A stretch of 64,000 bases of DNA from Candidatus Latescibacterota bacterium. GTDB lineage: Bacteria; Latescibacterota; UBA2968; GCA-2709665. Below, one piece after another: positions 21,448 through 44,878 of this stretch (positions are counted from its first letter, which is position 1; each line of letters starts with the position of its first letter). The DNA lies in NCBI GenBank assembly GCA_963667175.2, contig CAXXXF010000015.1, positions 128,001 through 192,000 on the forward strand, written 5' to 3'. The notes under the pieces are model-generated. The model made no database searches. It saw only the letters and a program-made list of their open reading frames with translations, and was not told where the DNA came from. The position numbers and the translations under genes were made by a program.

Positions 21448-21839
21448 AACAAGAGCGAACTCCGCTATGGAGCGTCAAGGCCAGCGATAGGGCGCTGTTT
21501 AATGGGTGTTCGGTATTCATATTCATAATCGTGATTGTTGCCGAAATTGTTACCAGGTGGCCTATATGCTGGCAACCTTTGACGAAAACCGCAAAAGACA
21601 TGATCCAGTTGGCTGCGCTCTCTATGATCGGGGCCTACTTTATCGTGGAGGCAAAGGACATGTTAGGCGGATTCAGGGACTGGGTTAAAGAAAGGAATCT
21701 CAGGATTAGACAGGAGCATTACGAGAGAGGTATACAAGAAAAAAACCGGGAATTCGAAAAGTGGGTTGAATCGGAACGCGAAAAAGGCACGCGTTTTAAC
21801 ACTCCACCTCCAATTGGCAATAACGGAGGCCAAACCTAA
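21417..21839 (+). CDS. Hypothetical membrane passenger protein
   Basis: Two hydrophobic segments, charged C-terminus; GGAGG RBS; convergent overlap with tnp stop. Confidence 0.55.
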   Translation: MAIYEEEHGVKQERTPLWSVKASDRALFNGCSVFIFIIVIVAEIVTRWPICWQPLTKTAKDMIQLAALSMIGAYFIVEAKDMLGGFRDWVKERNLRIRQEHYERGIQEKNREFEKWVESEREKGTRFNTPPPIGNNGGQT

Positions 21840-22774
21840 TCCACCAAATCCCGATACCTCAAACTCTTTCCAACCATACCGGCCACAATCCGTCCCATCT
21901 GCTCAACGGTATCCAGTTCACGGACGTTGTGCCTGCCAACGAATTCGTTGACGTATCTTTGCAGGTGCTGAACGCCCATCTTGTGGTATGTGCCATAGAT
22001 GCCGCGTTTGAACATCGACCAAAACGAATTGATACCGTTCGTGTGAACGTTGTAGTGGACGTATTCGCCGGATGAATGCTTGACAGTGCGATGCCTCATG
22101 CCCGTCATTCCCTGATAGGCTGAGGCATCGTCTGTGTACACGTCCGCGCCTTTGCTGGCGTGGCGCTCAACAAAGCCTTTGAGCGCAGGCCCGTAAATCG
22201 CCTCAGTCACTTCAGCGTCCCTGTCGTCTGTTTCGCGGTCACGAGCGCCGACCACTGCCGTCTTGCCCACTGTGCCCCTGCCTGCGTTCAGCTTGTCCTT
22301 TGCATGCTTATTTCGTTCCTTTCCGCCAACAAACGTTTCGTCTATTTCGACCGGCCCGGCAAACATTCCTCTATCCTCTGCCCACGCCTCGCGGATTCTG
22401 TGGGCCATGTGCCAGGCTGTTTTCTGCGTCACGCCTATATCCCTGTGCAGTTTCATGCTGAACGTACCTTTGAGACCGGTTGACATCAGGTAAATGGCAA
22501 TCGCCCACTTGCGATAACCGATCTTCGAGGATTCCATCAGTGAACCGGTTTTCGTAGAAAAGAACTTGCGGCAATCCTTGCAATGGAAGGGCATGCGGGG
22601 GTGACCGCCGTTGCGCTTGACGCGGTCGCTGTCACAGCGCGCACAACGCACGCCTTCCGGCCACCTTTGGGCAATGAACCATTGTTCGGCGACATCATCC
22701 GTTGGGAACAGGTCGAACAACTGAACCAGCGTGATACCCTCTCTGTGCGATTTTCCTGGTGCTTCGTGTGCCAT
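21836..22774 (-). CDS. IS1595-family transposase
   Basis: Zn ribbon CARC..CKDC, HTH (VTQKTAW), VEIDETFVGG, VYTDD, HTNGINSFWSMFKR. Confidence 0.93.
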   Translation of the reverse strand: MAHEAPGKSHREGITLVQLFDLFPTDDVAEQWFIAQRWPEGVRCARCDSDRVKRNGGHPRMPFHCKDCRKFFSTKTGSLMESSKIGYRKWAIAIYLMSTGLKGTFSMKLHRDIGVTQKTAWHMAHRIREAWAEDRGMFAGPVEIDETFVGGKERNKHAKDKLNAGRGTVGKTAVVGARDRETDDRDAEVTEAIYGPALKGFVERHASKGADVYTDDASAYQGMTGMRHRTVKHSSGEYVHYNVHTNGINSFWSMFKRGIYGTYHKMGVQHLQRYVNEFVGRHNVRELDTVEQMGRIVAGMVGKSLRYRDLVD

Positions 22775-27320: not shown

Positions 27321-30200
27321 TCAGGGAGTCTGGTTTCTTTCCAGGAGCGGTTTCAGGAACTGTCCCGTGTACGACTGTGCTGCCTCGGCCACCGTCTCGG
27401 GCGGGCCCGCGGCAATCAGATGCCCTCCGTTGTGCCCGCCCTCGGGGCCGAGGTCGATCACGTGGTCGGCAGTCTTGATCACGTCCAGATGGTGCTCGAT
27501 GACCACAACCGTGTGACCGGCGTCGACCAGACCGTTGAGCGCGTCGAGCAGTTTCTGGACGTCGGCCAGGTGCAATCCCGTGGTCGGCTCGTCCAGAATG
27601 TAGAGATTGTGTCTGCCGCGTTTGATCTTGCCGAGTTCGCTGGCGAGTTTGACACGCTGCGCCTCCCCGCCGGAGAGGATGGTCGCCGGATGGCCGATTT
27701 TCAGGTAACCCAGCCCCAGGTTGTCGAGCACGCAAAGCTTGTGAGAAATGAGTCTGTTTCCGTCAAAAAACGCGACGCCTTCTTCGATGGACATGTCGAG
27801 GACGTCGGCAATGGTCCTGTCCCGGTAGGTAACCTCCAGCGTCTCGTCGTTGTATCGTGCGCCCTTGCAGGTGGGACACGGGACGGCAACGTCGGGCATA
27901 AAGGCGAAGCTGGTCTTGATCTCGCCTTCGCCCGAACATTCCTCGCAGCGGCCGCCCTTGACGTTGAAGCTGAACCGGGAGGCCGTGTAACCGCGTTCGA
28001 CGGCTTCACCGGTGGATGCGAAACACTTGCGGATGTTGTCGTAGAAGCCGATGTACGTCGCGGGGTTGGATCGAGGAGACCGGCCGATGGCGGACTGATC
28101 GATGTTGACCACGTCCGCCACGTGTTCATGGCCCGAGAGGTCGTCATGATCGCCGGAGAAGACGCGGCTGTCGTGAAACAGGTTGTAGAGTTTCTTGTAC
28201 AGGATTTCGTGAATGAGAGTACTCTTGCCCGAACCGGATGCGCCGGTGATGCAGGTAAAGACGCCCAGGGGAATCTCCACGTCAATGTTATTGAGATTGT
28301 TCGCGCGCGCGCCTCGAATGCGGATCGCGTGGGCGTTTTTCTCACGTCGACGGGCGGGAACGGCGATCGCTCTGGCGCCGCTCAGGTATTGCGCCGTTGG
28401 CGATCGCCTGCACTTGAGCACCTCGCCCACCGGGCCCGTTGCGACGACGCGCCCGCCATGCACTCCGGGTCCGGGACCCATTTCGATGATGTGATCGGCG
28501 GCGCGTATGGTCTCCTCGTCGTGTTCGACGACGATGACCGTGTTGCCGACGTCGCGAAGACGCCGCATGGTGCTGATCATCTTCTCGTTGTCTTTGGGGT
28601 GCAGACCGATGCTGGGCTCATCCAGAACGTACAACATTCCCATGAGCCCGGATCCGATCTGCGTTGAGAGGCGAATGCGCTGGGACTCGCCGCCGGAGAG
28701 CGTGCCGGTCGGACGGTTGAGGTTGAGATAGTCGAGGCCGATGCCGATCAGGAGTTCGAGGCGGACCGAGATTTCGTGGATGATCTGCGAGGCGACTTCC
28801 TTCCGTTTCGCCGGCAGGGTCAATTTCGTAAGAAAGGCCGAAAGTTCCGGCAGATGCATTTCGCCCAGGCTGTGGATGTTGTGACCGTCGATGGTGACCC
28901 GGAGACGCTGTTTCTTCAACCGCTCGCCGCCGCAGTCCGGACACAGATTCTCAACCATGACTTTGCGCAGATAGTCTTCCATGCCGCCGTGGGCCGTACC
29001 CTTTTGCCTGTATCGGCGGTACTGGCGTTCGATCTGGTTGATCACACCGTCGTAACGGAACTCGCGCCCGATGTATTTGGCGCCGACTTTGGCGTCCGGA
29101 GGCTGCTCGATGACGACCCGTTCGCCCCGCGTGCCGTACAGCAGCAAGTCCCGGACGTCGTCGGAAAGGTCCTTGTAGGGAGTATCCAGGTCGAAGTCGT
29201 ACTTCCTGGAAAGACTGTAAAGGATTCGGCCGCCCCACGTATTGACGTCGTACTTCAGCGCTTCCTTGACAAATGCCCCTTCACGCAGACTGCGGTCCTT
29301 GTCGGGGGCGACCAGGTCGGGGTGGGCCTTGAGATAGGTGCCCAGACCGGAACATGTGATGCAGGCCCCGGCGGGATCGTTGAACGTAAACATCCCATGG
29401 TGCATACGACCGGCGACCACGTGCGCGGACGAAGCCCCGAGTTTTCGGTGGAACGTCTCGGCCGCCGCCTCGCCGACGTCGGTGAGAACGCGAAAACTCA
29501 GGAACCCTTCCCCGATGACCTCGAGACCGTGCGTCAGCGACGTCACAATCTGTTTGTCGAGGCCCTCGCGGACGACAAAGCGATCCACGATCACCTCGAT
29601 CCGGTAATCTTCCTCTTCATCGAGGTCGATTTCCTCGCCCAGATCGTGTGTTCTTTCGTCGATGCGCACCCTGCGGTAGCCCTTGGTGCGAACGTCGTCG
29701 AACAGGTAGGCGTAATCTTCGCCATAGATCTTGAGCACCGGCGCCCGAACCTCAACTTCCACGCCGCCGGGCAGGGCCAGAAGGTGTTCCATCATCTGAT
29801 GAGGCGTCCAGACGCTGACTTCCTCCCCGGTGACGGGGCAGCGCGGCTGTCCGATACTTGCGAACAGCATTCGCAGATAGTCATAGAGGTCCGTCATCGT
29901 CCCCACGGTTGAGCGGGGATTCTTCATCACGGTCTTCTGTTCTATGGAGACGACCGGGGAAAGTCCGTTCACGAAGTCGACGTCGGGCTTCTTCAATTGG
30001 GAGACGAATCGCCGGGCGAAGGTGGAAAGCGATTCCATGAACCGCCGCTGACCTTCGGCATATACCGTGTCGAAAGCAAGGGAGGATTTCCCCGAACCAC
30101 TCACGCCGGTGACAACGACAAGCTTGTCGCGCGGGATTTCGAGGTGAATATTCCGCAGATTGTTCTCGCGGGCGCCTTTGACTTCAATCGTCGATCTCAT
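27321..30200 (-). CDS. uvrA: Excinuclease ABC subunit A (UvrA)
   Basis: [52 protein letters not shown]; start 30200 or 30212. Confidence 0.93.
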
Positions 30201-30295
30201 CGACAATCCCATCAGAAAAGCGAGGGAACGAAACTGCGAGAGAACGAGAAAACGAATATACGCCGCTCGTCTTCTCGTCTTCTCGTTTCCTCGCC

Positions 30296-31252
30296 CTACA
30301 GAAGTTCGACGCTGTCACCGTCATAATAGTAGGCTGGCTCTTCAACTTCAATCCGGCTCTTCTCGGTCAGGTGGATGGGACTCGACAGCTTCTGAATGAT
30401 CTCCTGCGTGACGAGCCATTCACAGGCCGCTTCGAGGCCGCCGCCCTGGATTTTCTTTTCGAAATAATCGCTGATTTCCGAGAGTTTGCGCACTTCAGAC
30501 GACTCCGAGAGATAGTCCAGCAGCGGGCGGAAGAGGTCCGGAGCCCATTGTTCGAGACTGCGGTTCACCAGATCAAGTACGCGTTTGACGGATTCCTGAG
30601 TCTTGGGCTGATTCACGAAATCCGTGTAGATGGCGTTGAATAACCGGGGGTTGTATTTGAGCGCCTGATGGACCACTTCCCGCCCGGGCGCTTCGTTGTG
30701 CAGGAGAACCTGGATCGAGGCAAGTTCGCGTACGACCTGCATGAGCCACCAGAAGCTGTACTCGAAGTCCTTTTTCAGGTAGAAGTACTTTTCCGCCTTG
30801 TAGAGCGACGGTATCAGAAAGGCTGAGTATCTCAACAGCTGAAATGCCCGGTCCCGCGTTCCGATGCGATCGATGGTATCGTACCATTTCGCCACGGAAT
30901 CGTCCTTCGTAAACAGAAGGGTGCTCTTCGAAAACGTAAAGTCCAGCCAACCGCCGCCCAGACCGCCTTCGATCCGGCGTTTGAAGACGTTGCGGGGAAC
31001 GCGTTGCGCATGGATGTTGACGTCGTCTTCGCAGAGCGTGACGTGTCCTTCTTTCACCCCATCCTGCATGATGATCCACAGATCGACGTCCGAATTCACC
31101 CAGACTTCATCGTAGGACAGACTGCCAAACAGAATCGCAGCGAGTACCGTCCGGTCGCTTTCGAGTTTTCCGACCAGAGATGACAGCGCGACCCGGTAGT
31201 GTTTCCGGATTTCGTCCGGCGTGGCAGGAGACATCGACAACTCCATCATCAC
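30296..31252 (-). CDS. Nucleotidyltransferase-domain protein
   Basis: [19 protein letters not shown] (GS..DxD) motif. Confidence 0.75.
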
Positions 31253-31570
31253 TATTTATTAAATAAGAACGCAATGGAGCACATGATATATAATACAGGT
31301 TCAAATCAGGTGTCAAGGTCAATTCAATGAAAACGCACGCATCCGTCCCGGGAAGGAGAAACCGCTTGAAGACAAGGTGGCGGACAATCAACCGGAAAAT
31401 CATATTACTGTAACGTAGCAGCCCGTCGATAACGTCCATCCGGGGTGGTCCGACACCCTGCGGTAACTTCAATGAGATATCTTATCCACCAAAGAGCGGC
31501 GTGCAGTGACCGGTCCCGACAACCGGCAGACGCATCAAGCCGCTTCCCACCACGTCCGACGGAGGAACCG

Positions 31571-33979
31571 ATGTTTCATCGAATCCGGTCACGGGGTCCG
31601 ACTCTCGTCCTGTTAATCTGTCTGCTTGCGGCATCCGGCGCCGAATCATCGGCCGGCGATTTCAGGCTCACGATTCTGCACAACAATGACGGCGAATCCC
31701 AGTTGATAAACGCAGGCGAAGGGTTGGAGGACTTTGGCGGCGTGGACCGATTCAAGGCGCTTGCAGACCGGCTTAAGGCCGAAGCGCGGATGGACGGCGG
31801 CGTGATCATGGTCTCGTCGGGGGATAACTTTCTCGCCGGCCCGGAATTCTACGTCAGCCTCCGGCGCCCCGAACCCGCCCCCTTCTACGACGCCCTTGCG
31901 ATGGACCTGATCGGGTACGACGCCGTATGCATCGGCAACCACGACTTCGACTTCGGACCGGACGTCCTGGCCAGGTTCATTTCCGGGTACAGCCTCACCC
32001 GCCCGCCGTTTCTCAGCGCCAACCTCGGCTTCGGGGACGAACCGGAACTGGCCGGTCTCGTCGCTTCCGGCCGGATTGCCGGGAGCACGGTCGTCAGCGT
32101 CGACGGCGAACACATCGGCATCGTGGGCGCCACCACCCCCGACCTGGCGTTCATCTCCAGTCCACGAAACGTGAGGCTGGACGGCCGGCTGCGGGAAGCC
32201 ATCCAGGCGGAAGTGACCGGGCTGGCGCGACGCGGCGTGAGTATCATCATTCTGATCAGCCACCTCCAGTCCATCAACAACGATCTGGAACTCGCCAGGC
32301 AATTGCGGGGCGTGGACGTGGTGATCGCGGGCGGCGGCGACGACGTCCTGGCAAATCCAGGCACGCGTCTTATTCCCGGCGACGAAGCCGAGATTTCCGG
32401 ACCGTACCCGATACTCGAACAGAGCGCTGATGGAAACGACGTCCGCGTTGTTAGCACCGCGGGGAATTATCGTTACGTTGGACGGCTCGTGGCCGGTTTC
32501 AATGCTGCCGGCGTCATTACGTCAATCGACCGGGACGCCAGCGGTCCGGTGCGGGTGGCCGGCGGCGATCAGCCGGATGCCGTAGACCCCGACGTCGAGG
32601 TCCGTAACCGTGTCGTCGCCCCGGTCATCGATGCCCTTGCTTCCCTTTCTTCCAACCCGGTGGGAACGTCGAGCGTTGTGCTCGACGGCGTGAAGAGTAG
32701 AATTCGAACCCGGGAGACCAATGAAGGCAACCTGGTGGCCGACGCCCTCCGGTGGCAGAGCGCACGGCTTGCATCGTCGTTCGGCGTTCCCGTTCCACAG
32801 GTCGGCATCGTGAACGGAGGGGGAATACGCAACGCCAGCGAAATTCCCGCCGGCGCACTATCCGAACTCACGACCTTCGATATGTTGCCATTTCCCGACT
32901 TCGTCGCCGTCGTGCCCGCCGTTCCCGCAACACAATTCAGGGAAATCATGGAAAACGCGGTCTCCAAGGTAGAAGACGCCTCGGGGCGATTCGCCCAGAT
33001 TTCGGGCTTCACGATGGTCTGGAATCCCGACGGCGTCGCCCAGGAACTGGATGAGAGCGGAAACGTCAAGCGACGCGGCGGCCGGATCGTGAATATTACC
33101 CTCGACACGGGCGCCGGCATCGTCGAAAACGGAAACGTCGTATCCGGCGCGCCGGACATTCACGTGGCAACCGTCGACTTTCTCGCCAGGGGCGGCGACC
33201 AGTACCCCTATCGGGGCGCCCGCTCCACGCGTCTGGGCGTGACCTACCAGCAGGCGCTTGTCAACTTCATCAGGGAAGCCCTCGGCGGCCGCATCACGGC
33301 GGCGGCTTATCCGGCAGGGGGACATGGCCGGATTGCCACCGGACAACCGGCGCCGACGGACCGCCCGAACGTCCGCAATCGTTCTGTCGTACACGTCTTC
33401 CTCACGGGAGACGGCGGGCCTGTACCGGACGCCCGGGTCGAATTCTCCCGTTCCGTCTCCGGCCGTGCGAAGGTCTACAGGTGGAGAGGAACGACCGATG
33501 CCGAAGGCCGCGCCACAATAGAAATCCGACCTGAAAACCGCCGAAGCGTCTCGGGCTACTACGCGGTCCGGGCGGTGGATATCGCGGGCCATGCGTTCTC
33601 CAGTTGGGAGAGCGTCCCGATCAACAGCGGGCGGGAAATCACACTCCTCCTGTCGGTGGGCGGCGTCGCCCGCGTGGAAGAGGAACAACCGCTGGCCGCG
33701 GAGACCCTGGCGCTTTACCCGAACGCCCCCAACCCGTTCAACCCGTCCACCCAGATTGTCTATCGGATCCCTGAGCCCGGGCAGGTCGACCTCAGGGTCT
33801 ACAACCTGCTGGGCCAGCAGGTCCGGGTTCTGGTACGGGATCACCAGGAACCGGGCCGGTACGAGGTCCCGTGGGACGGAAGGGACGGGTTCGGGCGTTA
33901 CGTTTCCAGCGGCGTTTATTTCTATCGACTGGCGCATCCGGCCGGCACACACACCAAACGCATGCTCCTGGTCAAGTAA
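31571..33979 (+). CDS. Secreted 5'-nucleotidase/metallophosphoesterase with C-terminal FlgD/T9SS-like domain
   Basis: Signal peptide, LHNNDGES, SSGDNF, IGNHDFD, NGGGIR; C-terminal PNPFNPST..YNLLGQQV..SGVYFYRL; GGAGG RBS. Confidence 0.88.
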   Translation: MFHRIRSRGPTLVLLICLLAASGAESSAGDFRLTILHNNDGESQLINAGEGLEDFGGVDRFKALADRLKAEARMDGGVIMVSSGDNFLAGPEFYVSLRRPEPAPFYDALAMDLIGYDAVCIGNHDFDFGPDVLARFISGYSLTRPPFLSANLGFGDEPELAGLVASGRIAGSTVVSVDGEHIGIVGATTPDLAFISSPRNVRLDGRLREAIQAEVTGLARRGVSIIILISHLQSINNDLELARQLRGVDVVIAGGGDDVLANPGTRLIPGDEAEISGPYPILEQSADGNDVRVVSTAGNYRYVGRLVAGFNAAGVITSIDRDASGPVRVAGGDQPDAVDPDVEVRNRVVAPVIDALASLSSNPVGTSSVVLDGVKSRIRTRETNEGNLVADALRWQSARLASSFGVPVPQVGIVNGGGIRNASEIPAGALSELTTFDMLPFPDFVAVVPAVPATQFREIMENAVSKVEDASGRFAQISGFTMVWNPDGVAQELDESGNVKRRGGRIVNITLDTGAGIVENGNVVSGAPDIHVATVDFLARGGDQYPYRGARSTRLGVTYQQALVNFIREALGGRITAAAYPAGGHGRIATGQPAPTDRPNVRNRSVVHVFLTGDGGPVPDARVEFSRSVSGRAKVYRWRGTTDAEGRATIEIRPENRRSVSGYYAVRAVDIAGHAFSSWESVPINSGREITLLLSVGGVARVEEEQPLAAETLALYPNAPNPFNPSTQIVYRIPEPGQVDLRVYNLLGQQVRVLVRDHQEPGRYEVPWDGRDGFGRYVSSGVYFYRLAHPAGTHTKRMLLVK

Positions 33980-34163
33980 CGATCGGCACAGACCTGACGC
34001 ACAGTCAAAGAACCGGGCGATCGACGTGCTGATCGCCCGGTTCAATTTGCAGAGACCACGCGGACTGGTTTGCCACGGGCATCTCCCGGGTTGGATGTGA
34101 ACGCCGGGCGGCCCTCGTGCACGCCACGTCGGACCGTCGACTTCCTTCCGGACTTCTGTTCAC

Positions 34164-34192
34164 TTGACGAAGCAGACCATTTCCGGTATATT
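34164..34192 (+). promoter_or_regulatory. Sigma70-type promoter
   Basis: TTGACG-17-TATATT upstream of the RAPP leader ORF. Confidence 0.6.
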
Positions 34193-34237
34193 TTGGTTCT
34201 ATCCAAGTTCGTTCTGCGCTGATCTGGAGACCGCAGG

Positions 34238-34531
34238 ATGTTTTTTTCCACCGGACGGATTCATCCGGTTGTTCTTTTCGCGGTGGCGATATTCGCGGCC
34301 TACCTCGCGGTATTCCTGCTTGCCGCCTTTCCCGAACACGATCACGATCAACAATGTCACGATCACGAACAGTGTACGGTCTGCACATGGTTCAATAGCC
34401 TCAGCGTCGTCTTGCCGGCAATATTGGCGGTGCAACTTTGCTTTCTTTATTTCCGGCAGTTCTTCTCCTCGTGTCGCGCACCGCGCAATTCCTTCCTGCT
34501 TCCCGATGGCCGCGCACCTCCCGCGTCCTGA
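34238..34531 (+). CDS. DUF2946-like metal-sensing leader peptide with C-terminal RAPP motif
   Basis: N-terminal hydrophobic segment, EHDHDQQCHDHEQCTVC, ends GRAPPAS; upstream of lipoprotein and TBDR. Confidence 0.75.
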   Translation: MFFSTGRIHPVVLFAVAIFAAYLAVFLLAAFPEHDHDQQCHDHEQCTVCTWFNSLSVVLPAILAVQLCFLYFRQFFSSCRAPRNSFLLPDGRAPPAS

Positions 34532-34550
34532 TCCATCCTCCCGTGTCTAA

Positions 34551-34729
34551 CAGCCCGTTGAAAAAGCCCATCCGGGCTACGTCCGGCCCTTGTGGCCGAA
34601 TAACTGCGTTGCCTGCCTGCGGCAGGCAGGCGCTCCCTCCCCGAATCCAGGGATTCGCGTCGGTCGCGCGCCTTGTCTTCGGCCACAATGACTCGGCCTC
34701 GCCTGCAGAGCGACTTTTTCAACGGACTG
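34551..34729. mobile_element. MITE family A (179 bp)
   Basis: TIRs CAGCCCGTTGAAAAA / TTTTTCAACGGACTG; flanked both sides by CTAA; inverted copy at 45867-46059. Confidence 0.85.
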
Positions 34730-35042
34730 CTAAGAGACACGTCCTTAAACGTTACAAGGTCGTTTCCACATCAGTAACTCCGGCTTGGGACTTTGTCCGA
34801 ATCCGTATGAGCAGGAGAGCGGAACTTTCCCGCGCCGCGGCGGGCTTCAGTCTGCCGGGATCGGCATCGTGCCATCCTCCGCTTTCTCCGCAGGGCGTCT
34901 GCTGCAGCAACGGCAGGGCTGTCGCCTGAGGCGTCGGCATGGCGCCAATATGTCGTCAGATCGGGTTCAGGTCATGCACGCAGGCGGCTGCCCATGCCAG
35001 GTACGGGGTGCGTTAAATAAGCTCTTATACAGGAGAAAATCG

Positions 35043-36293
35043 ATGTTCAGCACGCTGAGAACGAAAAAACCGCATCACTGGATCGCAGCCGTAGCTGCAG
35101 CGGTCATTCTGGCCGGTTGCGGCAAGGATGACCCCCTGACGACGCAGGAAGAACACTATGAAGCCGAAGGCCTCGTGCTCATCGACGGCGGCCAGCGGTT
35201 CTTCCGCTATTTCCAGGGCAGGATCGACTCGGGCGACGGCCGGGCGGAAGCCCTGGAGGTCGCTCACGGCGAAGTCACCAACAAGTGGAGCATCCGCTTC
35301 CTGGACGAAGACGGAAACGAAATGGCGCCTCCCACCGGCGAGGATTTCAGTTTCACGTGGGAAATTGAGGACAAGTCCATCGTCGAAGTCGTCCAGGAAG
35401 CGGGAGAAGCGGGCCAGTTCGTCTTCGCCCTGCGCGGTCTGGAACACGGCGAGACCACCATCACGCTTCAAATCTCGCACGAAGGCCACGTGGACTTTAC
35501 CACACGGCCCATCCCCGTGCACGTGGAAGAAGAGTTTGAGGCGGAAGGGCTTGTCATCATCGAATCGGGCTTTCGATTCTTCCGTTATTTCAAGGGAGAA
35601 ATCGACTCTGGCGAGGGCCGTGCGGAAGTCCTGGAAGCGCCGATCGGCATGACGCCTCACTGGCGCATCATGTTCCTGGACGAACACGGCGATGAAATAG
35701 ACCCGCCGGACGATCCCGAGTTCACCTTCGGCTGGACCATTGCCGATCCCGACATCCTCGAAGTCGTCCAGGACGAGGGGGACGAGGGTTCGTTCGAATT
35801 CCACCTGCGCGGCTTGCACGAGGGCGAAACCACCATTGTGCTTAAGGTCGAACACGACGGACACACGGACTTCAGCACCCAACCCATCCCCGTGCACGTG
35901 GAATCACAAGAGGGGCAACACGAGGAACCCGTGGGCGTGCGGCTCAAGGAGGAAGACAGCGGTGAGTTGCTCACGCAGGCGCCCTTAAAGGGAGAGGGTT
36001 CAGCCACCGAAGACCTGACGGTTGCCGCAGGCGACACCACCGACCACATCGCGACCGTCTTCTTTGACGAACACGACGTTGAGTTCCAGCCCGAAGCGCC
36101 CGACCATACGCTGGGCATTGCGGTGGCCGACACCTCGCTGCTCGGTATCGACCCGCCTGCAGCGCCCGAATACTGGGCTTTCAGGCTCATTGGCAAAAAG
36201 GCCGGCGCCACCACCATCGCGCTTTCCATTCTCCACGACGGAGAGACGGAGGAAGAGTTCGCGCCGGTCTCCGTGACGATCACCGCGCCGTAG
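35043..36293 (+). CDS. Acidic lipoprotein with three Ig-like repeats (HxGHxDF), putative metal-binding TBDR partner
   Basis: Lipobox ILAGC; AGGAG RBS; two clear ~125-aa repeats ending SHEGHVDF and EHDGHTDF, plus a diverged third. Confidence 0.8.
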   Translation: MFSTLRTKKPHHWIAAVAAAVILAGCGKDDPLTTQEEHYEAEGLVLIDGGQRFFRYFQGRIDSGDGRAEALEVAHGEVTNKWSIRFLDEDGNEMAPPTGEDFSFTWEIEDKSIVEVVQEAGEAGQFVFALRGLEHGETTITLQISHEGHVDFTTRPIPVHVEEEFEAEGLVIIESGFRFFRYFKGEIDSGEGRAEVLEAPIGMTPHWRIMFLDEHGDEIDPPDDPEFTFGWTIADPDILEVVQDEGDEGSFEFHLRGLHEGETTIVLKVEHDGHTDFSTQPIPVHVESQEGQHEEPVGVRLKEEDSGELLTQAPLKGEGSATEDLTVAAGDTTDHIATVFFDEHDVEFQPEAPDHTLGIAVADTSLLGIDPPAAPEYWAFRLIGKKAGATTIALSILHDGETEEEFAPVSVTITAP

Positions 36294-36490
36294 CAGAAAA
36301 CGCGGCGGGAGGGTTCTTCTCGCCCTCCCGCCCCTCTCCGGGTCAGGCTACGTCCCCATAGGCGTATAACCGACCCGGCGCTTTGGCATTTCGCAGGCAT
36401 GTCCGCAAATCCGAAGTTCGTCCGCCGCGCAGGCGGTTGCCCACGCGGAATTCGGGGCGAAGTGAGATTTCCATATACAGGAGGACATGA

Positions 36491-38737
36491 ATGTCCAGCA
36501 CGCTGAAAGCGAAAACACCCAATCCATGGATAGCCACGGCAGGCGTTCTTGCCGTGTTCCTGTCCGTGTCCTGTCTGGCCGGGCTCAGCTCGGCCGCTCA
36601 GGCGGTGTTGATCGAAGGGTATATCTTCGACAGCGAGTCCGGACTCCCCATCCGGAACGTGAACGTCCAGCCCGCGGAACCCGCCGCGGGCACGTCTACC
36701 GACGAAAAAGGCCGGTTCGTGCTTCACCTGTCTCCAGGTGTCTATCGGCTGTCCTTTACGCACGTCGGCTATCGGGAAATGCGCCGCGAACTGAACGTCT
36801 CGGGAACGAAGCATCCTGTTGTCTATCTGGAACTGGCGCGACTGGACCTCAAGCTGGATCCCATCGACGTCGTGGCCAAACGCGCTGAAACCCGGTTTGA
36901 CGAACTCAAGCAGGCAACCCGCGTGCTTTCGGGCGACGAACTCAAGAAGAAATATAGCATGACGTTGGCCGAGACCATGAAAAACGAACTCGGCGTGGCC
37001 ATCCGCAGCATGGGTCCGGCGCCCGCCCGGCCGGTCATCCGCGGCCTCAGCGGGGACCGCGTCCAGATCAACGTCGACGGCATCGAGTCCCAGGACCTCT
37101 CATCCACGTCCTCGGACCACGCGGTCACGGTGGAGACGTTCAACGCGGAACGCCTGGAAATCATCCGCGGACCCCGCACGCTGCTCCACACGACCACGGC
37201 CGGCGGCGGCGTCATCAACGTCGTCAAGCACAAGATTCCGGAAACGCGACCACGGCGTTTCTTCGGAAGCGTCGGCGCCTATGGAGAGACGGTCAACCGG
37301 GGCTATTTCTCGTCCGCCGCCCTCACCGCGCCCCTCGGGCCGTTGGCGCTTTACGCCGAATCCACGTACCGGGATACCAGGGACATCCGGACCCCGGTCG
37401 GCAGACTCGCCAATACCCCCATCAACACCAATACATATACACTCGGCATGTCCTATGCGGGCGACCTGGGCTACTTCGGGGCTTCTTTCGATCAGTTCGA
37501 AACGCAATACGGCATTCCGGGCGGATTCATCGGCGCCCATCCCAACGGCGCGGACCTCGATATCGTGCGGCGGGTCTTCGACGGGAAGGCGGTCTATCGG
37601 TTCGACGGCCTTAAGATAGACCGGGCCGAGGTAGGTTTCGCCAGGGCCTATTACTACCACGTCGAGTACGAGTCCAGCGGCAGCATCGGATCCGAGTTCC
37701 TCTTTCATGACTACAGCGGTGAACTCAAACTCTACCTGAACCCGGGAGATCAGGAACACAACACCGTTCTCACCTCCGGTTTTCAACACAGAAACCTGAA
37801 ACTGGGGGGGTTTGTCTTTACCCCTCCCACGCGAAAGCAGGATCTCAACGTCGGGTTGTATCACGAGACGACCTACCGCAATATCGAACTTCAGGCCGCC
37901 GCCAGGTACAACTATACCACCTTCGACCCGCGCCTCACCGCGTTCTCCAACACGAGCCTGGACGTAGACCGCGCCTTCCATACCTGGTCCGCGGCCTTCA
38001 GCCCGCTCGTGCCGGTCACCGACCAGCTGACAGCGGGCATCAGCCTCAGCCGTTCTCAACGCGCCCCCACCATCGAGGAACTCTACAACGAGGGACCGCA
38101 CCTGGCCGCATTCACCTTTGAGATTGGCAATGTGGAACTCAACGCCGAACGCAGTTTCGGCCTGGAGGCCTTCCTCCACTTTCTGCAACCGGGCTTCGAC
38201 CTGGTCGTCACGGGATTCTGGAACGAGTTCGGCAATTACATCGTGCCTCGAAATACGGGAAAAATCAACTATTCGAAGCTCCTCCCCATCTACGCCGCCG
38301 ACGGCATCGACGCGAGAATGCTGGGCGTGGAAAGCCACATGAAGTGGCGTCCGAACGCGCGCGTGGAACTGGAGATGAACCTGAGCCACGTGCGCGGGGA
38401 GAACCGGGACGAACGCATTCCCCTGCCCGAAATACCGCCGCTCAAGTTCGCTGGCAGCGCGACCTACAGGCACCCCTGGTTAAGCGCGGGAGGAACCGTG
38501 GAATGGGCCGCGGGACAGAAGCGCGTGGATACCTACGAAGATCCCACCGACGGTTATACCGTCTTCGGCGTTACCATTCAGCGCGACTTCCTCGCGAATC
38601 AGGCCCGCCACAGCGTTATCCTTTCCCTCGAGAATCTCTTCGACGTGGAATACCGGAACCACCTGTCGCGCGTCCGATCCGTGATGCCCGAAACGGGCCG
38701 CAGCCTGAAATTGCACTACAGGATGTATTTCTTTTAG
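36491..38737 (+). CDS. TonB-dependent receptor, ZnuD-like
   Basis: N-terminal carboxypeptidase-regulatory-like domain, RPVIRGLSGDRV, SSDHAV, EIIRGP, EELYNEGPHLA, C-terminal YFF. Confidence 0.88.
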   Translation: MSSTLKAKTPNPWIATAGVLAVFLSVSCLAGLSSAAQAVLIEGYIFDSESGLPIRNVNVQPAEPAAGTSTDEKGRFVLHLSPGVYRLSFTHVGYREMRRELNVSGTKHPVVYLELARLDLKLDPIDVVAKRAETRFDELKQATRVLSGDELKKKYSMTLAETMKNELGVAIRSMGPAPARPVIRGLSGDRVQINVDGIESQDLSSTSSDHAVTVETFNAERLEIIRGPRTLLHTTTAGGGVINVVKHKIPETRPRRFFGSVGAYGETVNRGYFSSAALTAPLGPLALYAESTYRDTRDIRTPVGRLANTPINTNTYTLGMSYAGDLGYFGASFDQFETQYGIPGGFIGAHPNGADLDIVRRVFDGKAVYRFDGLKIDRAEVGFARAYYYHVEYESSGSIGSEFLFHDYSGELKLYLNPGDQEHNTVLTSGFQHRNLKLGGFVFTPPTRKQDLNVGLYHETTYRNIELQAAARYNYTTFDPRLTAFSNTSLDVDRAFHTWSAAFSPLVPVTDQLTAGISLSRSQRAPTIEELYNEGPHLAAFTFEIGNVELNAERSFGLEAFLHFLQPGFDLVVTGFWNEFGNYIVPRNTGKINYSKLLPIYAADGIDARMLGVESHMKWRPNARVELEMNLSHVRGENRDERIPLPEIPPLKFAGSATYRHPWLSAGGTVEWAAGQKRVDTYEDPTDGYTVFGVTIQRDFLANQARHSVILSLENLFDVEYRNHLSRVRSVMPETGRSLKLHYRMYFF

Positions 38738-38810
38738 TCCCGAGCAGACAATCGAAGCAGATGCGCCACCCATCCGATGTTGGCAGCGTTGGTTGATCTC
38801 CGGCAATTCA

Positions 38811-38842
38811 AAGCCCCGGATCCAAAAGCCGATCCGGGGCTT
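38811..38842 (+). terminator. Hairpin/terminator after TBDR
   Basis: AAGCCCCGGATC..GATCCGGGGCTT followed by a T-rich tract. Confidence 0.7.
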
Positions 38843-38897
38843 GCACTTTTTATATTCAGGCTTTATCTTTCAGGGACAGAAAATCGTAACGAATACG
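38841..38897 (+). promoter_or_regulatory. Sigma70 promoter with candidate Zur-like box
   Basis: TTGCAC-17-TATCTT, then AAATCGTAACGAATACG resembling AAATCGTAATNATTACG. Confidence 0.4.
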
Positions 38898-38977
38898 TGG
38901 CAGATGATGGCAACGTGTGCCCGTGGGGATAGCGAGTAAAGGGAAGACGAACAGACACGACAAGGAAGGTTTCTCAG

Positions 38978-39916
38978 ATGTTGTCACACGAAGTTTTCCG
39001 CGAGCGGGCATGGCGGACCGACAGTATCGACGATTCCGCAGCCTGGCACTACACGCTGTCCGAGGATTGTCTTTCCAACCTCAGGCGCATCATCCGGCAC
39101 GCGCGGGGGCATACCGGACCGATCACGGAGATTTCCCTGCCGGACGTCACGTCCAATGGCTGCGGAGAATGCCTTCAGCCGGCACGTGACGCTCTGAGTT
39201 CTGGACGGGGGTTTGCGATCGTCGAACGGGCGCCTTGCGAAGTCGAGGATGCGCTCGCGATGTACTGGGCGGTCGGCAACTTCCTCGGAAGCCCCATGGC
39301 GCAGAATATCGAAGGAACGCTGCTGTACGACGTGCGGGACACGGGCATGGACGTGGCACAGGGCGCCAGGTTTTCAGTGACCAACGCAGAGAGCACGTTC
39401 CATAACGACAATGCCTTCGGCAAGCCGCTGCCCGACGTCGTGGGACTGCTCTGCGTGCGCACGGCAATTTCCGGCGGACAGAGTCAGCTGATCAGCGGCT
39501 ACGCCCTCCATAACGAGTTGCTGGAAAATCACGCCGACGTCCTTGAAATCCTGTATCGACGGTTCTATTTTGATCGTCGAGGACAGTTCGAAGCCGGGGA
39601 ACCGCCAACGTCTGAATTCCCCGTTTTTCAGTGGCACAGCGGGGAATTGACGCTCCGGTATTTATACTACTACATCCAGGTGGGTCACGAGCGCGCGGGC
39701 AAATCACTGACCGCGGATCAAAGAAGAGCGCTGGGCGTTGTGGAAGCGCTGCTGCGCCGCGAGGACTTCAGGGTGGAGTTCAATCTGCAACCGGGTCAGA
39801 TGCTGTTCACGAATAACCGCTGGATCCTGCACAATCGCACCGCATTCGAGGACCATCCCGACCCGGAACGCCGCCGGCATTACGTGCGGCTCTGGCTGCG
39901 CCGCCGCGGCCTGTAA
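38978..39916 (+). CDS. TauD/TfdA family Fe(II)/2-oxoglutarate dioxygenase
   Basis: FHND (HxD), NNRWILHNRTAF, RHYVRLW. Confidence 0.88.
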   Translation: MLSHEVFRERAWRTDSIDDSAAWHYTLSEDCLSNLRRIIRHARGHTGPITEISLPDVTSNGCGECLQPARDALSSGRGFAIVERAPCEVEDALAMYWAVGNFLGSPMAQNIEGTLLYDVRDTGMDVAQGARFSVTNAESTFHNDNAFGKPLPDVVGLLCVRTAISGGQSQLISGYALHNELLENHADVLEILYRRFYFDRRGQFEAGEPPTSEFPVFQWHSGELTLRYLYYYIQVGHERAGKSLTADQRRALGVVEALLRREDFRVEFNLQPGQMLFTNNRWILHNRTAFEDHPDPERRRHYVRLWLRRRGL

Positions 39917-39952
39917 TTGAGAAATTGGTATCCGTTTGCATGTAACCGGCGC

Positions 39953-40411
39953 TTACCCGTCCACAACCTCATAGGCGCCCGAATTGTACATATTCTCCCG
40001 GGTCTCCACCCGGTATACCCAGCAACGTCCATCGGTCGTCCCGCGGATCATCCGGTCGGCATAGTCGAACGCGAATTTGGAGGATGCCTCCATCCCGACG
40101 TTCGGCATCACGCGCAGGTCCACAATTCCCCTCCGGTGCATTTCCTCGAACAGCTCGCGCTCCGGGTCGTCTTCGTTGATCAGCATCGTGTGGTCGAACA
40201 TGTGCTCCAACCAGGCCTTCAGATCCTTGAGTTTGCCGAAATCCACCACAAAGTGATTCTCGTCCAGCTCGTTGCACGTAAAGTGGAACGTTATGACGCG
40301 GTTGTAGCCGTGGATGAACTGGCAGTGCCCGTCGTGATGCGCCTGTCGGTGCGAACACGGCAGATTGTGAAATGTCTTGGTGGACGAAAACCGCCCTTTT
40401 CCCCTGGCCAT
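39953..40411 (-). CDS. queD: 6-carboxytetrahydropterin synthase (QueD/PTPS family)
   Basis: CSHRQ..GHCQFIHGY, VVDFG, FDHTMLIN. Confidence 0.8.
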   Translation of the reverse strand: MARGKGRFSSTKTFHNLPCSHRQAHHDGHCQFIHGYNRVITFHFTCNELDENHFVVDFGKLKDLKAWLEHMFDHTMLINEDDPERELFEEMHRRGIVDLRVMPNVGMEASSKFAFDYADRMIRGTTDGRCWVYRVETRENMYNSGAYEVVDG

Positions 40412-40517
40412 AGACCCGTCCCGCATCGAAGTCAGACTTGGGTGAACACCCTAGAAAATATCGATTTCGCCCACTCTGTCAAGGTTTCCGCACCTGAAGA
40501 CCGAAAGGAACGCGCCG

Positions 40518-41360
40518 ATGATCATTGACACCCACACCCACTTCTACAATCCCGGCCGACCGGAAGGGGTGCCGTGGCCGCCGCAGGACGACACCCTGCT
40601 CTACCGCCGCGTGCTTCCTGAAAACTACAAGGCCGTTGCGGTTCCGGAGGGCGTGACCGGCGCCGTGGTCGTGGAGGCCAGCGAGTGGTTCGAAGACAAT
40701 CGCTGGATCCTCGACCTGGCCGAAAAAGAGCCGTTCATCGTAGGCTTTGTCGGCAATCTCGACCCGGACGCCGACGCCTTTCAGGACCGGCTTGCAAGCC
40801 TGGCGGACAACCCGCTTTTCCGGGGCATACGCCTTCACAGAAACGAGGTCCGGACCGTTGGCGGTCCGCTGTTTTCCAAACTCGAGTTGCTGGTTCGGCA
40901 CGACCTTTCCCTCGACCTCCTCATCGACGTCGAGCAGCTTCATTCCGCCGTCCGAATTGCCGAGCGGCTGCCGGACCTGCGCATTGTGCTCAATCACGTC
41001 ATCCACGTACCCATCGACGGCAAGACGCCGGACCCCGAGTGGATCGACGGCCTGCACAATATCGCGCAGTTCCCGAACGTCTACTGCAAGGTGTCCGGCC
41101 TCGTCGAAACCGCCCGACAACGACCCGCTCCTCCCGAGTTGAACTATTATGCGCCGACGCTGGACCACCTCTGGGAGATTCTCGGCGTGGACCGACTCAT
41201 CTACGCCAGCAACTGGCCCGTGTGCGAACACGGCGCCGACTACGCGACTGTGCAGCGCGTCCCCATGGAGTATTTCAGAGCCATTGGTGAAGAAGCGGTC
41301 GAAAGGGTATTCTGGAAGAACGCAAAAGCGGCTTACAGGTGGCCCGATCGCAAGCATTAG
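40518..41360 (+). CDS. Amidohydrolase family protein
   Basis: IIDTHTHF, VLNHV, CKVSGLV, YASNWPV. Confidence 0.88.
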   Translation: MIIDTHTHFYNPGRPEGVPWPPQDDTLLYRRVLPENYKAVAVPEGVTGAVVVEASEWFEDNRWILDLAEKEPFIVGFVGNLDPDADAFQDRLASLADNPLFRGIRLHRNEVRTVGGPLFSKLELLVRHDLSLDLLIDVEQLHSAVRIAERLPDLRIVLNHVIHVPIDGKTPDPEWIDGLHNIAQFPNVYCKVSGLVETARQRPAPPELNYYAPTLDHLWEILGVDRLIYASNWPVCEHGADYATVQRVPMEYFRAIGEEAVERVFWKNAKAAYRWPDRKH

Positions 41361-41462
41361 CAAATCACGAGGCGACGGGAACGCGCCGCGCGGACGGTCC
41401 TGCCGGGGACCGGATCTTTCGTCAGGGCTCTATTGTTCGTCCGGCCGGTTCGCGGACAGACG

Positions 41463-41819
41463 TTAACGTCGCCGGGTGAGCATGGGCCCGAGCGGACGTC
41501 CTCCAAGCAGATGCATATGCAGGTGGTAGACCTCCTGGCCGCCGTGGTCCCGGCAATTCACGATCAACCGGTATCCGTCATCGGAAAACCCTTCCTGTTC
41601 CGCGAGCCGGGCCGCCACGGTAAACAACCGGCCAAGCGCGGCCTCATCTTTGGACGATACATCGCTGACGGTGGGTATCACCTTGTTTGGAACAATCAGA
41701 ATGTGAGTCGGCGCCTGCGGATTGATATCTCGAAACGCCGTCACCAGCTCATCCTGATACGTGATTTCAGACGGTATCTCCTTCCGTATGATCTTGCTGA
41801 AGATGGTCTCGTCCGCCAT
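41463..41819 (-). CDS. hinT: HIT family nucleotide hydrolase (HinT)
   Basis: [33 protein letters not shown]. Confidence 0.9.
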
Positions 41820-41952
41820 GAATTCTCCTTTCGGCAATCACCTCCATTTGCTATCTTCCGTGGCCAACGCTGAACAAAAAAACAACGCGCAAACCACAAA
41901 TCAAGGAATTCTTTAACCCGAGTAGCTGTTGTCCCGGAGAGAAGGCGGGAAC

Positions 41953-42216
41953 ATGCTTCCTATCCTCGATCGACTCCTGGCCGCATTTGCGACAATCCTT
42001 CTGCGGTTCTACCGGTTATTTGTCTCTCCTTTTTTACATTTCGTTTTCGGTCCCGGCAGCGGGTGCCGGTTTTATCCCACGTGCTCCCGGTACGCGCGTG
42101 ATTGCTTTCGGCAACATTCCGTTCCTGTCGCCCTGTTTCTGTCGGTCTCGCGAGTGCTGAAATGTCATCCCTTTCACCCGGGGGGATTTGATCCCGTCCC
42201 GCCGAAGCGCCAATAG
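41953..42216 (+). CDS. yidD: Membrane protein insertion efficiency factor YidD
   Basis: CRFYPTCSRYA..RVLKCHPFHPGGFDPVP. Confidence 0.9.
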   Translation: MLPILDRLLAAFATILLRFYRLFVSPFLHFVFGPGSGCRFYPTCSRYARDCFRQHSVPVALFLSVSRVLKCHPFHPGGFDPVPPKRQ

Positions 42217-43328: not shown

Positions 43329-43592
43329 ATGAACACGCCGCGAAAAGTGCCTGTTTCCATCCTCACCGGCTTCCTCGGCTCTGGCAAGACGACCCTGCTC
43401 AACCGGATCTTGAGTGAGGAGCACGGCAAGCGCATTGCCGTGATCGAGAACGAGTACTGCGAGGTCGGCATCGATCAGGCGCTCGTCATCGACGCTGACG
43501 AAGAGACCTTCGAGCGCAATCAGCTCGTCTTCAACGGCCGCTACCTCGATGAGCAGAGCATGCGGCGGGGGTTCGAAGCATGTCTGATGTGA
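43329..43592 (+). pseudogene. COG0523/CobW GTPase with large in-frame internal deletion
   Basis: N-terminal TGFLGSGKTT..IAVIENE..GID joined directly to C-terminal NQLVFNGRYLD..GFEACL; only 87 aa. Confidence 0.8.
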
Positions 43593-44623
43593 ACGTCGAC
43601 AGACCCAGGGGCGTTCTTCGCCGGGGTTGGTCTGCAGCGGTCGGCGACTATGCCATCGCCGGGGGTTGGAGCCTGCGCGGTGAGGCGCTGATGGTCGGTG
43701 ACGCTGCGGGTGGCGTCTACGCCTTCGACGGCAAGTCCGGCGCGACCGCCTGGGCACGGCGGGAGGTTCATGACGGTGGTGTGCTCGCAATGGCGATCCA
43801 CCCAGGCGGAACCGCGTTCGCGACGGCCGGCCAGGACAGCCGAATCTTAATCTGGACCGCCGCCGAAGGTCAGGTAAGCCGGGCTATCGACGTCGGAAGC
43901 GGCTGGGTAGAAAACGCGGCGTGGTCGCCGGACGGCCAGTGGTTGGCGGCATCCTGCTCCCGGGAGGTCCGCGTATATGACGCCGACGGCGTGGAAGTTT
44001 GGCGATCTGATGATCATCCCAGCACCGTCAGCGCGATTGCCTGGTCGAGCTCAGGGGAGCTGGCGACGGCCTGTTACGGTCGAGTGACGTTCTTCGACGC
44101 GGCCACCGGCGAGCCACGCCAGAAGCTGGAGTGGCAGGGCTCCCTGGTGTCGATGGTCCTGAGTTCGGACGGCGATATCGTGGCCTGCGGCAGCCAGGAC
44201 AACTCGGTGCACTTCTGGCGTCGCTCCACGGAGGAGGACTCCATGATGTCGGGATATCCTGCCAAGCCGTCGGCACTGGCTTTCGACGACACCGGCGCCC
44301 TCCTAGCCACCGGGGGAGGGGAGGCGGTGACGGTCTGGAGCTTCCACGGAAGTGGTCCCGAAGGCACGCGGCCCGGCGTTTTAGAGCTTCATGTTCAGCC
44401 CGTCACGACGCTTGCCTTCGATCGCCGCTCGATGCGCCTGGCATCCGGAGGCCGTGACCGTGCCGTGGTCGTGTGGTCGCTTCAGAGAGATGGAGAAGGC
44501 GGTCCGATAGGGGTCGCGGTTGTGGAGGGCGCAGTGGCCGAATTGTACTGGCGGCCAGACGGCCGCGCGCTTGCCGCGCTCGACGCGCGGGGTGGCGTGA
44601 CGGTTTGGCGGACTCGATCTTGA
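43580..44623 (+). CDS. WD40-repeat protein
   Basis: ATAGQDSRILIW, AWSPDG, CGSQDNSVHFW, ASGGRDRAVVVW. Confidence 0.88.
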   Translation: MSDVNVDRPRGVLRRGWSAAVGDYAIAGGWSLRGEALMVGDAAGGVYAFDGKSGATAWARREVHDGGVLAMAIHPGGTAFATAGQDSRILIWTAAEGQVSRAIDVGSGWVENAAWSPDGQWLAASCSREVRVYDADGVEVWRSDDHPSTVSAIAWSSSGELATACYGRVTFFDAATGEPRQKLEWQGSLVSMVLSSDGDIVACGSQDNSVHFWRRSTEEDSMMSGYPAKPSALAFDDTGALLATGGGEAVTVWSFHGSGPEGTRPGVLELHVQPVTTLAFDRRSMRLASGGRDRAVVVWSLQRDGEGGPIGVAVVEGAVAELYWRPDGRALAALDARGGVTVWRTRS

Positions 44624-44688: not shown

Positions 44689-44716
44689 TTGCCCATGAGA
44701 AAAAGTATCATATGAT
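44689..44716 (+). promoter_or_regulatory. Candidate promoter with 7-1-7 Fur-family box
   Basis: TTGCCC-16-TATGAT; spacer holds TGAGAAA-A-AGTATCA. Confidence 0.45.
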
Positions 44717-44720
44717 TCTG

Positions 44721-44878
44721 GTGTTCTGTCCCGATAATAAGTTGCCTGAATTCGGCCGTCGAGACGAGATGAATCGGCCGAAGAATGGTGAGGGAGCGCC
44801 TGCCTGCCGCAGGCAGGCAACGCCGTATTTCGGTCACAAGGGCCGGACGTAGCCCGGATGGACTTTATCAACGGGCTG
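44721..44878. mobile_element. Chimeric MITE: partial family B (inverted) joined to right part of family A
   Basis: 44721-44794 matches the reverse complement of parts of 47417-47635; 44790-44878 matches 45958-46059. Confidence 0.7.

Follow-up and report, generated by a model that had tools for sequence, protein, structure and literature searches.

A leader of roughly 150-190 nt together with the first 15-25 or so codons is shared by two adjacent genes, one for a lipoprotein and the other for a TonB-dependent receptor, in a 64,000-nt stretch of DNA from Candidatus Latescibacterota bacterium (GenBank assembly GCA_963667175.2, contig CAXXXF010000015.1, positions 128,001 to 192,000 of the forward strand), referred to here as the window. 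The reading favored, with a probability of about 0.55, is that the shared segment is the scar of recombination and today acts solely as a conventional start of translation and an export signal. Its source would be the 5′ end of the lipoprotein gene family, i.e. the distal part of the intergenic region past a CruR-like upstream open reading frame (uORF), the Shine-Dalgarno (SD) sequence, the start codon and the early signal peptide. In one lineage of the genus this 5′ end would have become fused in frame to the following receptor gene with removal of the lipoprotein body; the resulting double signal peptide was apparently trimmed at least twice, at different points, and homologous recombination would then have carried the module from one paralogous lipoprotein-receptor locus to another. 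Such transfer would leave the receptor of the window with a leader of another lineage than that of the adjacent lipoprotein.

On the lipoprotein side CGCAGGCGGCTGCCCATGCC begins at 34979 and on the receptor side CGCAGGCGGTTGCCCACGCG begins at 36428, with TATACAGGAG at 35026 and 36474 (47 and 46 nt past the respective motif starts) and ATG start codons at 35043 and 36491. The encoded N-termini are MFSTLRTKKPHHWIA for the lipoprotein and MSSTLKAKTPNPWIA for the receptor. The strings, the motif starts and the 47- and 46-nt offsets had been given in an earlier note made from the window's sequence, and all are found exactly as placed; a common leader, ribosome-binding site and set of first codons before both genes, as it described, is confirmed by significant alignment. 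Its description of the mature proteins as unrelated also stands, the lipoprotein having no Pfam family and the receptor consisting of CarboxypepD_reg, Plug and TonB barrel domains. As to extent, the module is indeed present before both genes, but the short leader and ~15 codons first reported fall short of the actual repeat. The copies align at about 34897-35087 and 36341-36534, most strongly over 34979-35086 and 36428-36534, and the core is a 61-nt direct repeat of 79% identity in a repeat search. BLAST across the genome finds the paralogous copy with an E-value of 2.9e-8 and 71% identity over 108 nt. The similarity spans the noncoding/coding boundary and stops within the signal peptide.

Chance, low complexity or convergence of signal-peptide composition could be invoked, and some likeness is indeed expected, the N-regions of signal peptides being Lys-rich and then hydrophobic. 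However, the likeness continues over 150 nt of noncoding DNA, with profile E-values of 1e-40 to 1e-52. The 19-nt motif (Y at two positions) has two exact matches in the window and four at ≤3 mismatches, the mean in shuffles being 0.12 and none of 100 shuffles reaching four; a 33-nt pattern from the SD to codon 5 has two matches in the window where shuffles give an expectation of 0.00. With the intermediate fusion forms described below added to the shuffles and profile E-values, this explanation is refuted and retains next to no probability.

BLAST over 41 related genomes, followed by an nhmmer profile made from 20 leaders of the genus, shows the leader unit to be a genus-wide feature, of about 190 nt of noncoding DNA and some 18 initial codons. 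The profile gives copy 1 (lipoprotein) an E-value of 7.8e-40 and copy 2 (receptor) one of 4.7e-52, and finds a third full copy on another contig, before a lipoprotein paralogue (G000:C1:43456-43647, E 5.5e-48), so that this genome holds three. Beyond the genus there is no profile match among 30 loci fetched across the order with the lipoprotein as query, and the region upstream of the lipoprotein gene in other genera differs, with nothing alignable to the leader. Conservation of the motif in relatives is thus seen within the genus and not outside it.

As reconstructed from present-day loci, the ancestral arrangement is a lipoprotein gene, a short hairpin-bearing spacer and a receptor with an N-terminus of its own, as seen in the majority of relatives and in every other genus examined. 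Seven loci of the genus are leaderless (L036, L037, L038, L040, L041, L044 and L053), with the receptor starting 65 nt past the lipoprotein stop (23 nt in L053). Their spacer opens with a hairpin, GGCGGGAGGG...CCCTCCCGCC, from which 26 nt more lead to the native receptor ATG, and the native N-terminus is MADLFRI..PGDGSSHRSAIR..ALALLSVACLAGIGSAAQAVL. In seven loci of other genera (L045, L046, L048, L049, L050, L052 and L060) the spacer is 28-85 nt, these lengths being dependent on script-called starts, with L055 and L057 giving overlaps and no usable start. The recipient gene is without a leader, then, both in the seven loci of the genus and in those of other genera with a callable start, across spacers of 23-85 nt. 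The lipoprotein N-terminus in the genus has the pattern MF..LKMKT..HWIATAAVLAVFLSGCGK. Because outgroup lipoprotein N-termini resemble the shared peptide (that of L046 starts MFFKMKTLHHRIAAAAVLALFVAGCGKDDP), this peptide would have belonged first to the lipoprotein; outgroup receptors start differently.

An intermediate form is present in four loci (those of G005, G008 and G004, and the second locus of G009). In it the leader and lipoprotein codons 1-31 are joined in frame to the native receptor from about codon 11, to give MFSTL..AVFLSG[R]G[R/K]E.P followed by native ..DG.S.RRS..R.., and the lipobox Cys is replaced in all four (LSGRG, LSVRG, PSVPG). In the window's receptor the lipoprotein-type part covers residues 1-25 and the native sequence begins at VSCLAGLSSAAQA (VSCLAG), which suggests a trimmed version of the fusion intermediate. 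The window's receptor keeps the lipoprotein hydrophobic stretch, whereas the form in G010 and G014 keeps the native one and has its join elsewhere, and these different join points suggest separate trimming events. In the window, leader sequence takes over directly after the 3′ arm of the hairpin past the lipoprotein stop, and this is the 5′ junction of the copy.

From the fetched loci 33 leader rows were gathered, 31 of which were used in a leader tree (FastTree). The 8 receptor-attached copies form one clade (Shimodaira-Hasegawa-like support 0.949) nested among lipoprotein leaders (0.921); copy 2 of the window groups with the other seven, and the window's lipoprotein leader is in another clade, ‘clade II’ (0.975). 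Since the window's two copies are in different leader clades, neither is a local duplicate of the other. For the receptor body, compared over 371 residues, the 6 leader-bearing receptors are scattered without forming a clade, and the approximately unbiased (AU) test rejects their monophyly (difference in log likelihood 44.7, p 0.0045). The differing histories of leader module and receptor body indicate recombination between paralogous loci. What the receptor would have gained is the strong start of the lipoprotein, AGGAG(G) 6-7 nt before AUG, plus the beginning of an export signal, in place of a 65-nt spacer whose GGAG stands 11 nt from the ATG.

Several relatives carry another type of locus besides (L026, L028, L031, L032, L033 and L042), in which there is an additional lipoprotein paralogue. 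This locus type includes a small gene with a C-terminal domain like those of the type IX secretion system and a second copy of the uORF, with degenerate promoter hexamers. In the second locus of G009 the receptor is interrupted, tblastn giving two pieces in different frames. At L031:1406 a lipoprotein paralogue has CTG for ATG and an altered SD, ACAGGAAT, and may be decaying.

The alternative proposed in the earlier note was a conserved cis-regulatory RNA or a protein-binding translational module, one not recognized as a known riboswitch. The last point is borne out, as a cmscan of positions 30000-42000 against Rfam (E≤1) gives no match within either leader copy, the weak matches being to wcaG (37762-37873, minus strand) and Entero_5_CRE (36297-36370), both far below gathering scores. 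The conserved RNA itself finds no favor, there being almost no consensus fold, no conservation in excess of four-fold degenerate sites and a distribution in one genus. With RNAalifold, 20 copies give -3.4 kcal/mol and almost no consensus structure, and the 22 clade-I copies give -16.3 kcal/mol with a covariation term of -0.25. Seven leaders folded singly have z-scores of -1.9 to +1.1, not better than their shuffles, and covariation in the GC-rich hairpin at the leader's 5′ boundary is likewise no better than in shuffles.

Conservation was assessed with 20 lipoprotein-attached leaders, from which 8 receptor-attached leaders, two distant copies and truncated rows had been excluded. At 88 four-fold sites of the attached gene the mean majority fraction is 0.867, with a null 95th percentile of 0.925. 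In 12-nt noncoding windows of the leader the fraction is 0.68-0.87 and in those from the SD to codon 16, the best conserved part, 0.87-0.92; none of the leader windows exceeds the four-fold-site null. Pairwise between the window and L028, identity is 0.64-0.65 at four-fold sites and 0.62-0.78 in leaders. The genus is young, and alignable leaders are therefore expected without selection.

Nor does the 19-nt motif behave as a regulon signal: at ≤2 mismatches there are three sites in the genome, the third inside a ComEC-like open reading frame, and the two 3-mismatch sites in the window (18482, 22888 minus strand) are not matched by the leader profile. Consensus block B has one genome site at ≤1 mismatch and the GC-rich block A has eight, contexts not inspected; taken together, neither the consensus blocks nor the palindromes are found again in other parts of the genome. 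A protein-binding element kept by selection is accordingly disfavored, its motif blocks lacking recurrence in the genome and conservation above synonymous sites.

The part of the leader that comes closest to a functional RNA is at the start codon. A 5-bp helix, GAACA-N4-UGUUC, engages the last SD G on one side and the UG of AUG plus codon 2 on the other; in 25 distinct leaders the pairing holds in 88.8% of cells. Two of its pairs are changed on both sides: an A-U to G-C double change in the window and G009 receptor copies makes Phe2Ser, and another in one paralogue makes Phe2Leu. Since residue 2 is altered by both, one can argue for pressure at the level of nucleotides and not of protein. There are 4 double-changed cells, a number reached by 0 of 500 shuffles. 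A second palindrome, UUCAG-N4-CUGAA in codons 2-6, is paired in 89.6%, with one double change that 93 of 500 shuffles reach. In the genus consensus the two hairpins are overlapping perfect 14-nt palindromes, mutually exclusive as RNA.

From these features one could argue that leader and start form an RNA-level unit of translational control with small alternative hairpins, spread by recombination and kept by selection, and that its presence on both cistrons would couple production of lipoprotein and receptor. The first 15 codons of the window's two copies, with 6 non-synonymous and 3 synonymous differences, are unlike the product of protein-level selection, and the SD-to-codon-16 part is where leader conservation peaks. 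However, that peak is within the synonymous null, the hairpins are of 5 bp only, and the 45-nt start regions fold at -2.8 to -12.7 kcal/mol. The window's lipoprotein copy has 4 of the 5 pairs, the receptor copy of G014 breaks the helix, and the compensatory events number two, three at most, in a setting where relatedness of the sequences is enough, with no structure at all, to outdo every shuffle. The second hairpin has weak covariation and is lost in fusion-type leaders, and the start regions of other genera differ and lack the palindrome. Such a unit is fairly unlikely, and the start-codon helix, being short, of low energy and with two or three events behind it, is a lead only. Most of the translational module earlier proposed finds no support, a weak form being kept alive by this hairpin and its two compensatory changes. 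A bolder version, in which the ~190-nt leader with its start codons is a portable post-transcriptional cassette with mutually exclusive mini-hairpins, selected and spread by recombination, is a long shot. If true, it would provide matched, and possibly metal-tuned, output of lipoprotein and receptor downstream of a RAPP arrest uORF, and CruR-type operons would have a modular translational regulator of a new kind.

A rather different possibility is that the leader acts as DNA, as a promoter/operator of its own, recognized for example by an alternative sigma factor or by some repressor responsive to metal, with the copy creating a second co-regulated unit. The copy starts just past the GC-rich hairpin at 36304-36332, which could end the upstream transcript; the blocks GGCGG(A/C/T)TG..CA.G and TTCGGGGCGAAGTGAGAT are prominent by eye, ~60 and 35 nt before the SD; and there is an extracytoplasmic function (ECF) sigma/anti-sigma gene pair at 56816-58105. 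However, no sigma-70-like site (-35/-10, 16-18 nt spacing) was found in the five leaders scanned (two in the window, one in L041 and two in L028), and the same scan detects the promoter of the uORF in the window and L041; as it picks out TTGACG-17-TATATT there, the organism uses canonical promoters. Consensus sequences for sigma-54, ECF and Bacteroidota-type promoters, compared by eye only, do not fit the spacing in the leader. With no U-tract, and present also in leaderless loci with 26 nt left to the ATG, the hairpin at 36304-36332 probably falls short of a full terminator. Conservation of the blocks does not surpass that of synonymous sites and they do not stand before other genes, no regulator gene is adjacent and the receptor is without an STN domain. 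A promoter of this type is quite unlikely; transcription would most likely start at the sigma-70 promoter before the uORF.

Several considerations count against regarding the segment as a recombination scar with an ordinary start. For the receptor leaders of the window and L028, orthologous identity is 0.78 and so exceeds the 0.64 at four-fold sites. The four-fold yardstick may itself be too strict, as it draws on invariant residues only and codon bias may hold such sites, and weak constraint on the leader could be hidden by it. The leader may hold an unconventional promoter. The start-codon helix has been kept by two double changes despite the cost in amino acids, which hints at RNA-level selection on the translation start. 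As to the history proposed, deep nodes of both the leader and receptor trees have weak support (0.2-0.7), the FastTree topology had already been seen when the AU test was run, and the order in which fusion precedes trimming and transfer is a deduction from the forms present, undated.

The earlier suggestion that the duplicated piece relays a RAPP-peptide or metal signal does not fit well; the more likely relay is further upstream, in the CruR-like uORF together with the stretch rich in C around its 3′ end. In CruR of Bordetella pertussis, copper sensed by the nascent peptide relieves RAPP arrest, so permitting Rho-dependent termination before a TonB-dependent transporter, and the rut region has been mapped to the C>G bubble where the uORF ends (PMC9426467); RAPP uORFs before TonB-dependent receptors are reported to be widespread (PMC12992588, PMC12914433). 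The uORF in the window, apparently a two-segment membrane protein, contains ...EQCTVCTWF..., a HDHDQQCHDHEQC loop and the C-terminus ...LLLPDGRAPPAS (GRAPPAS). Against Pfam PF11162 (DUF2946) it scores 15.0 bits (E 0.042) versus a cut-off of 23.7, the weak match being of residues 32-95 to profile positions 50-117 of 117. Throughout the order, homologues that keep the CxxC and GRAPP/GRSPP (RSPP in the most distant) stand ahead of the lipoprotein gene, and the three-domain lipoprotein and then the receptor always follow. The locus has the look of a modified form of the copper-sensing uORF operon already published, and by analogy metal control most likely acts at the RAPP arrest site of the uORF and the C-rich stretch after it, not at the duplicated piece. 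GC skew over 34420-34580 is -0.22 to -0.41 in 80-nt windows, versus +0.12 to +0.16 (G>C) in the leaders, the duplicated leader being the distal, G-rich part of the uORF-lipoprotein intergenic region. The possibility, noticed by eye, of the RAPP codons (CCTCC) pairing with the SD as a long-range switch was dropped because CCTCC is not kept in other genera.

The hexamers of the uORF promoter are kept in most copies of the genus and in three other genera (L046, L048 and L049). In relatives (e.g. L041:835-863) many of the spacers between them hold an inverted repeat, GAAAC-N5-GTTTC, and other genera carry AATCATAT between the hexamers; the repeat, partly kept in the window, could be an operator. 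The uORF-lipoprotein intergenic region is 511 nt here versus 329 nt in the closest relative, from which an insert resembling a miniature inverted-repeat transposable element (MITE) is absent; blastn of 34532-34900 gives 218 matches in the genome. This ~185-nt insert sits inside the expected Rho-loading zone, and further pieces of the dispersed repeat are near 44700-44850 (minus strand) and 31416-31444. Coordinates of the features considered are collected in the Table.

Table. Features of the uORF-lipoprotein-receptor locus, in coordinates of the window
Feature	Position	Strand	Basis or remark
Sigma-70-type promoter TTGACG-17-TATATT before the uORF, likely the operon promoter	34164..34192	+	Sole promoter-like site in 33900-36600
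CruR-like uORF, 97 aa, two hydrophobic segments, His/Cys-rich loop, CTVC (CXXC)	34238..34531	+	Order-wide conservation
C>G stretch at or just past the uORF 3′ end, candidate Rho-loading zone	34420..34580	+	GC skew
Dispersed repeat of ~185 nt, MITE-like, 17 nt past the uORF stop	34548..34733	.	blastn
Leader copy 1 (distal uORF-to-lipoprotein intergenic region plus lipoprotein codons 1-15)	34897..35087	+	nhmmer; motif 34979; SD-containing TATACAGGAG 35026-35035
Start-codon hairpin candidate, copy 1, GAAAA-UCGA-UGUUC, 4/5 pairs	35035..35048	+	
Lipoprotein, 416 aa, lipobox LAGC, three tandem Ig-like domains	35043..36293	+	AF2 model
GC-rich hairpin GGCGGGAGGG...CCCTCCCGCC past the lipoprotein stop; 5′ junction of leader copy 2	36304..36332	+	
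Leader copy 2 (receptor codons 1-15 preceded by 150 nt of leader)	36341..36534	+	nhmmer
Start-codon hairpin candidate, copy 2, GGACA-UGAA-UGUCC, 5/5 pairs	36483..36496	+	
Chimeric signal-peptide part of the receptor, codons 1-25 MSSTLKAKTPNPWIATAGVLAVFLS, lipoprotein type	36491..36565	+	N-terminus comparison
TonB-dependent receptor, 748 aa (CarboxypepD_reg, Plug, barrel)	36491..38737	+	Pfam

As to the two proteins, the best NCBIfam model for the receptor is ZnuD, with 202 bits versus a cut-off of 950 and so far below it, and the TonB-copper model gives 60 bits versus 472. No signaling (STN) domain is found in the receptor. For the lipoprotein, neither Pfam nor NCBIfam gives a family above threshold. 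Its AlphaFold2 (AF2) model, with a mean predicted local distance difference test score of 82.5, is all-beta with three repeats, and is no guide to function, Foldseek returning generic Ig-domain arrays only and a protein atlas search unnamed clusters only. Each of the Ig-like domains starts EEH..AEGL and ends H.GH.DF...PVHV, and many His residues are invariant across 23 orthologues; the protein could be a metal-binding partner of the receptor. It was found in 44 of 53 genomes of the order, and is paired with the receptor in the 14 gene-mapped loci outside the leader-bearing group.

Downstream of the receptor, 38978-41360 holds genes for a TauD-family dioxygenase, a 6-pyruvoyl-tetrahydropterin-synthase-like protein (minus strand) and an Amidohydro_2 protein, and in several relatives these are syntenic with the receptor. 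Elsewhere in the window are ankyrin-repeat and WD40-repeat proteins and an IS1595-family transposase (18694-20502, 43580-44620 and 21839-22774). Sequencing runs containing the locus are mostly labelled as sponge or coral metagenomes, and for 34100-37100 there is no RNA run among those listed.

In a broader context, striking similarity of leader and N-terminus between unrelated genes can arise without a riboswitch. The route suggested is that the lipoprotein 5′ end was fused in frame to the receptor, that the lipobox was lost and the double signal peptide shortened, and that recombination between paralogous loci spread the product, with intermediates persisting in sister species. For annotation this counsels caution, in that no regulatory RNA should be called on such repeats when synonymous sites are unsaturated among close taxa. 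The locus also joins the CruR-like RAPP-uORF operons, differing from the Bordetella case both in lineage and in how its genes are ordered (uORF, three-domain lipoprotein, receptor), and that context may outrank the repeat itself in interest.

The ‘upstream homology box’ loci of Borrelia and the vlp genes of Mycoplasma are lipoprotein families whose members share a recombining 5′ flank and signal-peptide start. The present case is like them in that promoter-proximal DNA, ribosome-binding site and signal-peptide start travel as one recombining unit. In those, however, all the members are lipoproteins and antigenic variation is often involved, whereas here a lipoprotein unit would have moved onto a beta-barrel receptor, the lipobox has been lost and no variation system is apparent. 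With riboswitches and other structured leaders there is the similarity of a position directly upstream of transport genes and a length of ~150 nt. The leader is unlike riboswitches in being without an Rfam match, in being present in one genus only with conservation not above that of synonymous sites, and in being without consensus structure or covariation beyond the 5-bp helix.

In attenuation of the tna operon type, the ribosome stalls where the leader peptide ends and so keeps Rho from acting. This logic is used in the CruR paper (PMC9426467), and by analogy the upstream uORF most likely controls the leader-bearing genes in the same way. The duplicated leader itself is unlike tna, being G-rich rather than C-rich, and the receptor copy has no preceding uORF.

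The likeness to CruR (DUF2946) and the Bordetella pertussis cruR-bfrG/crtA-bp2921 operon (Roy et al. 2022, PMC9426467) is at the operon level and does not extend to the duplicated piece; in the portions of the three CruR papers considered (PMC9426467, PMC12914433, PMC12992588), no second copy of an intergenic leader before the receptor is described. The uORF protein here, of 97 aa versus 145, has an extra His/Cys-rich loop and a two-segment membrane look and is below the Pfam DUF2946 threshold, and a three-domain lipoprotein gene stands between uORF and receptor. Membership of the receptor in the CrtA family, a response to copper and Rho dependence would hold here by analogy alone. What the two have in common is nevertheless considerable: a uORF with CXXC and RAPP and a promoter upstream of it, a long intergenic region (511 nt here) incompatible with translational coupling, a stretch of C>G at the uORF 3′ end and, in the same orientation downstream, a TonB-dependent receptor (36491-38737).

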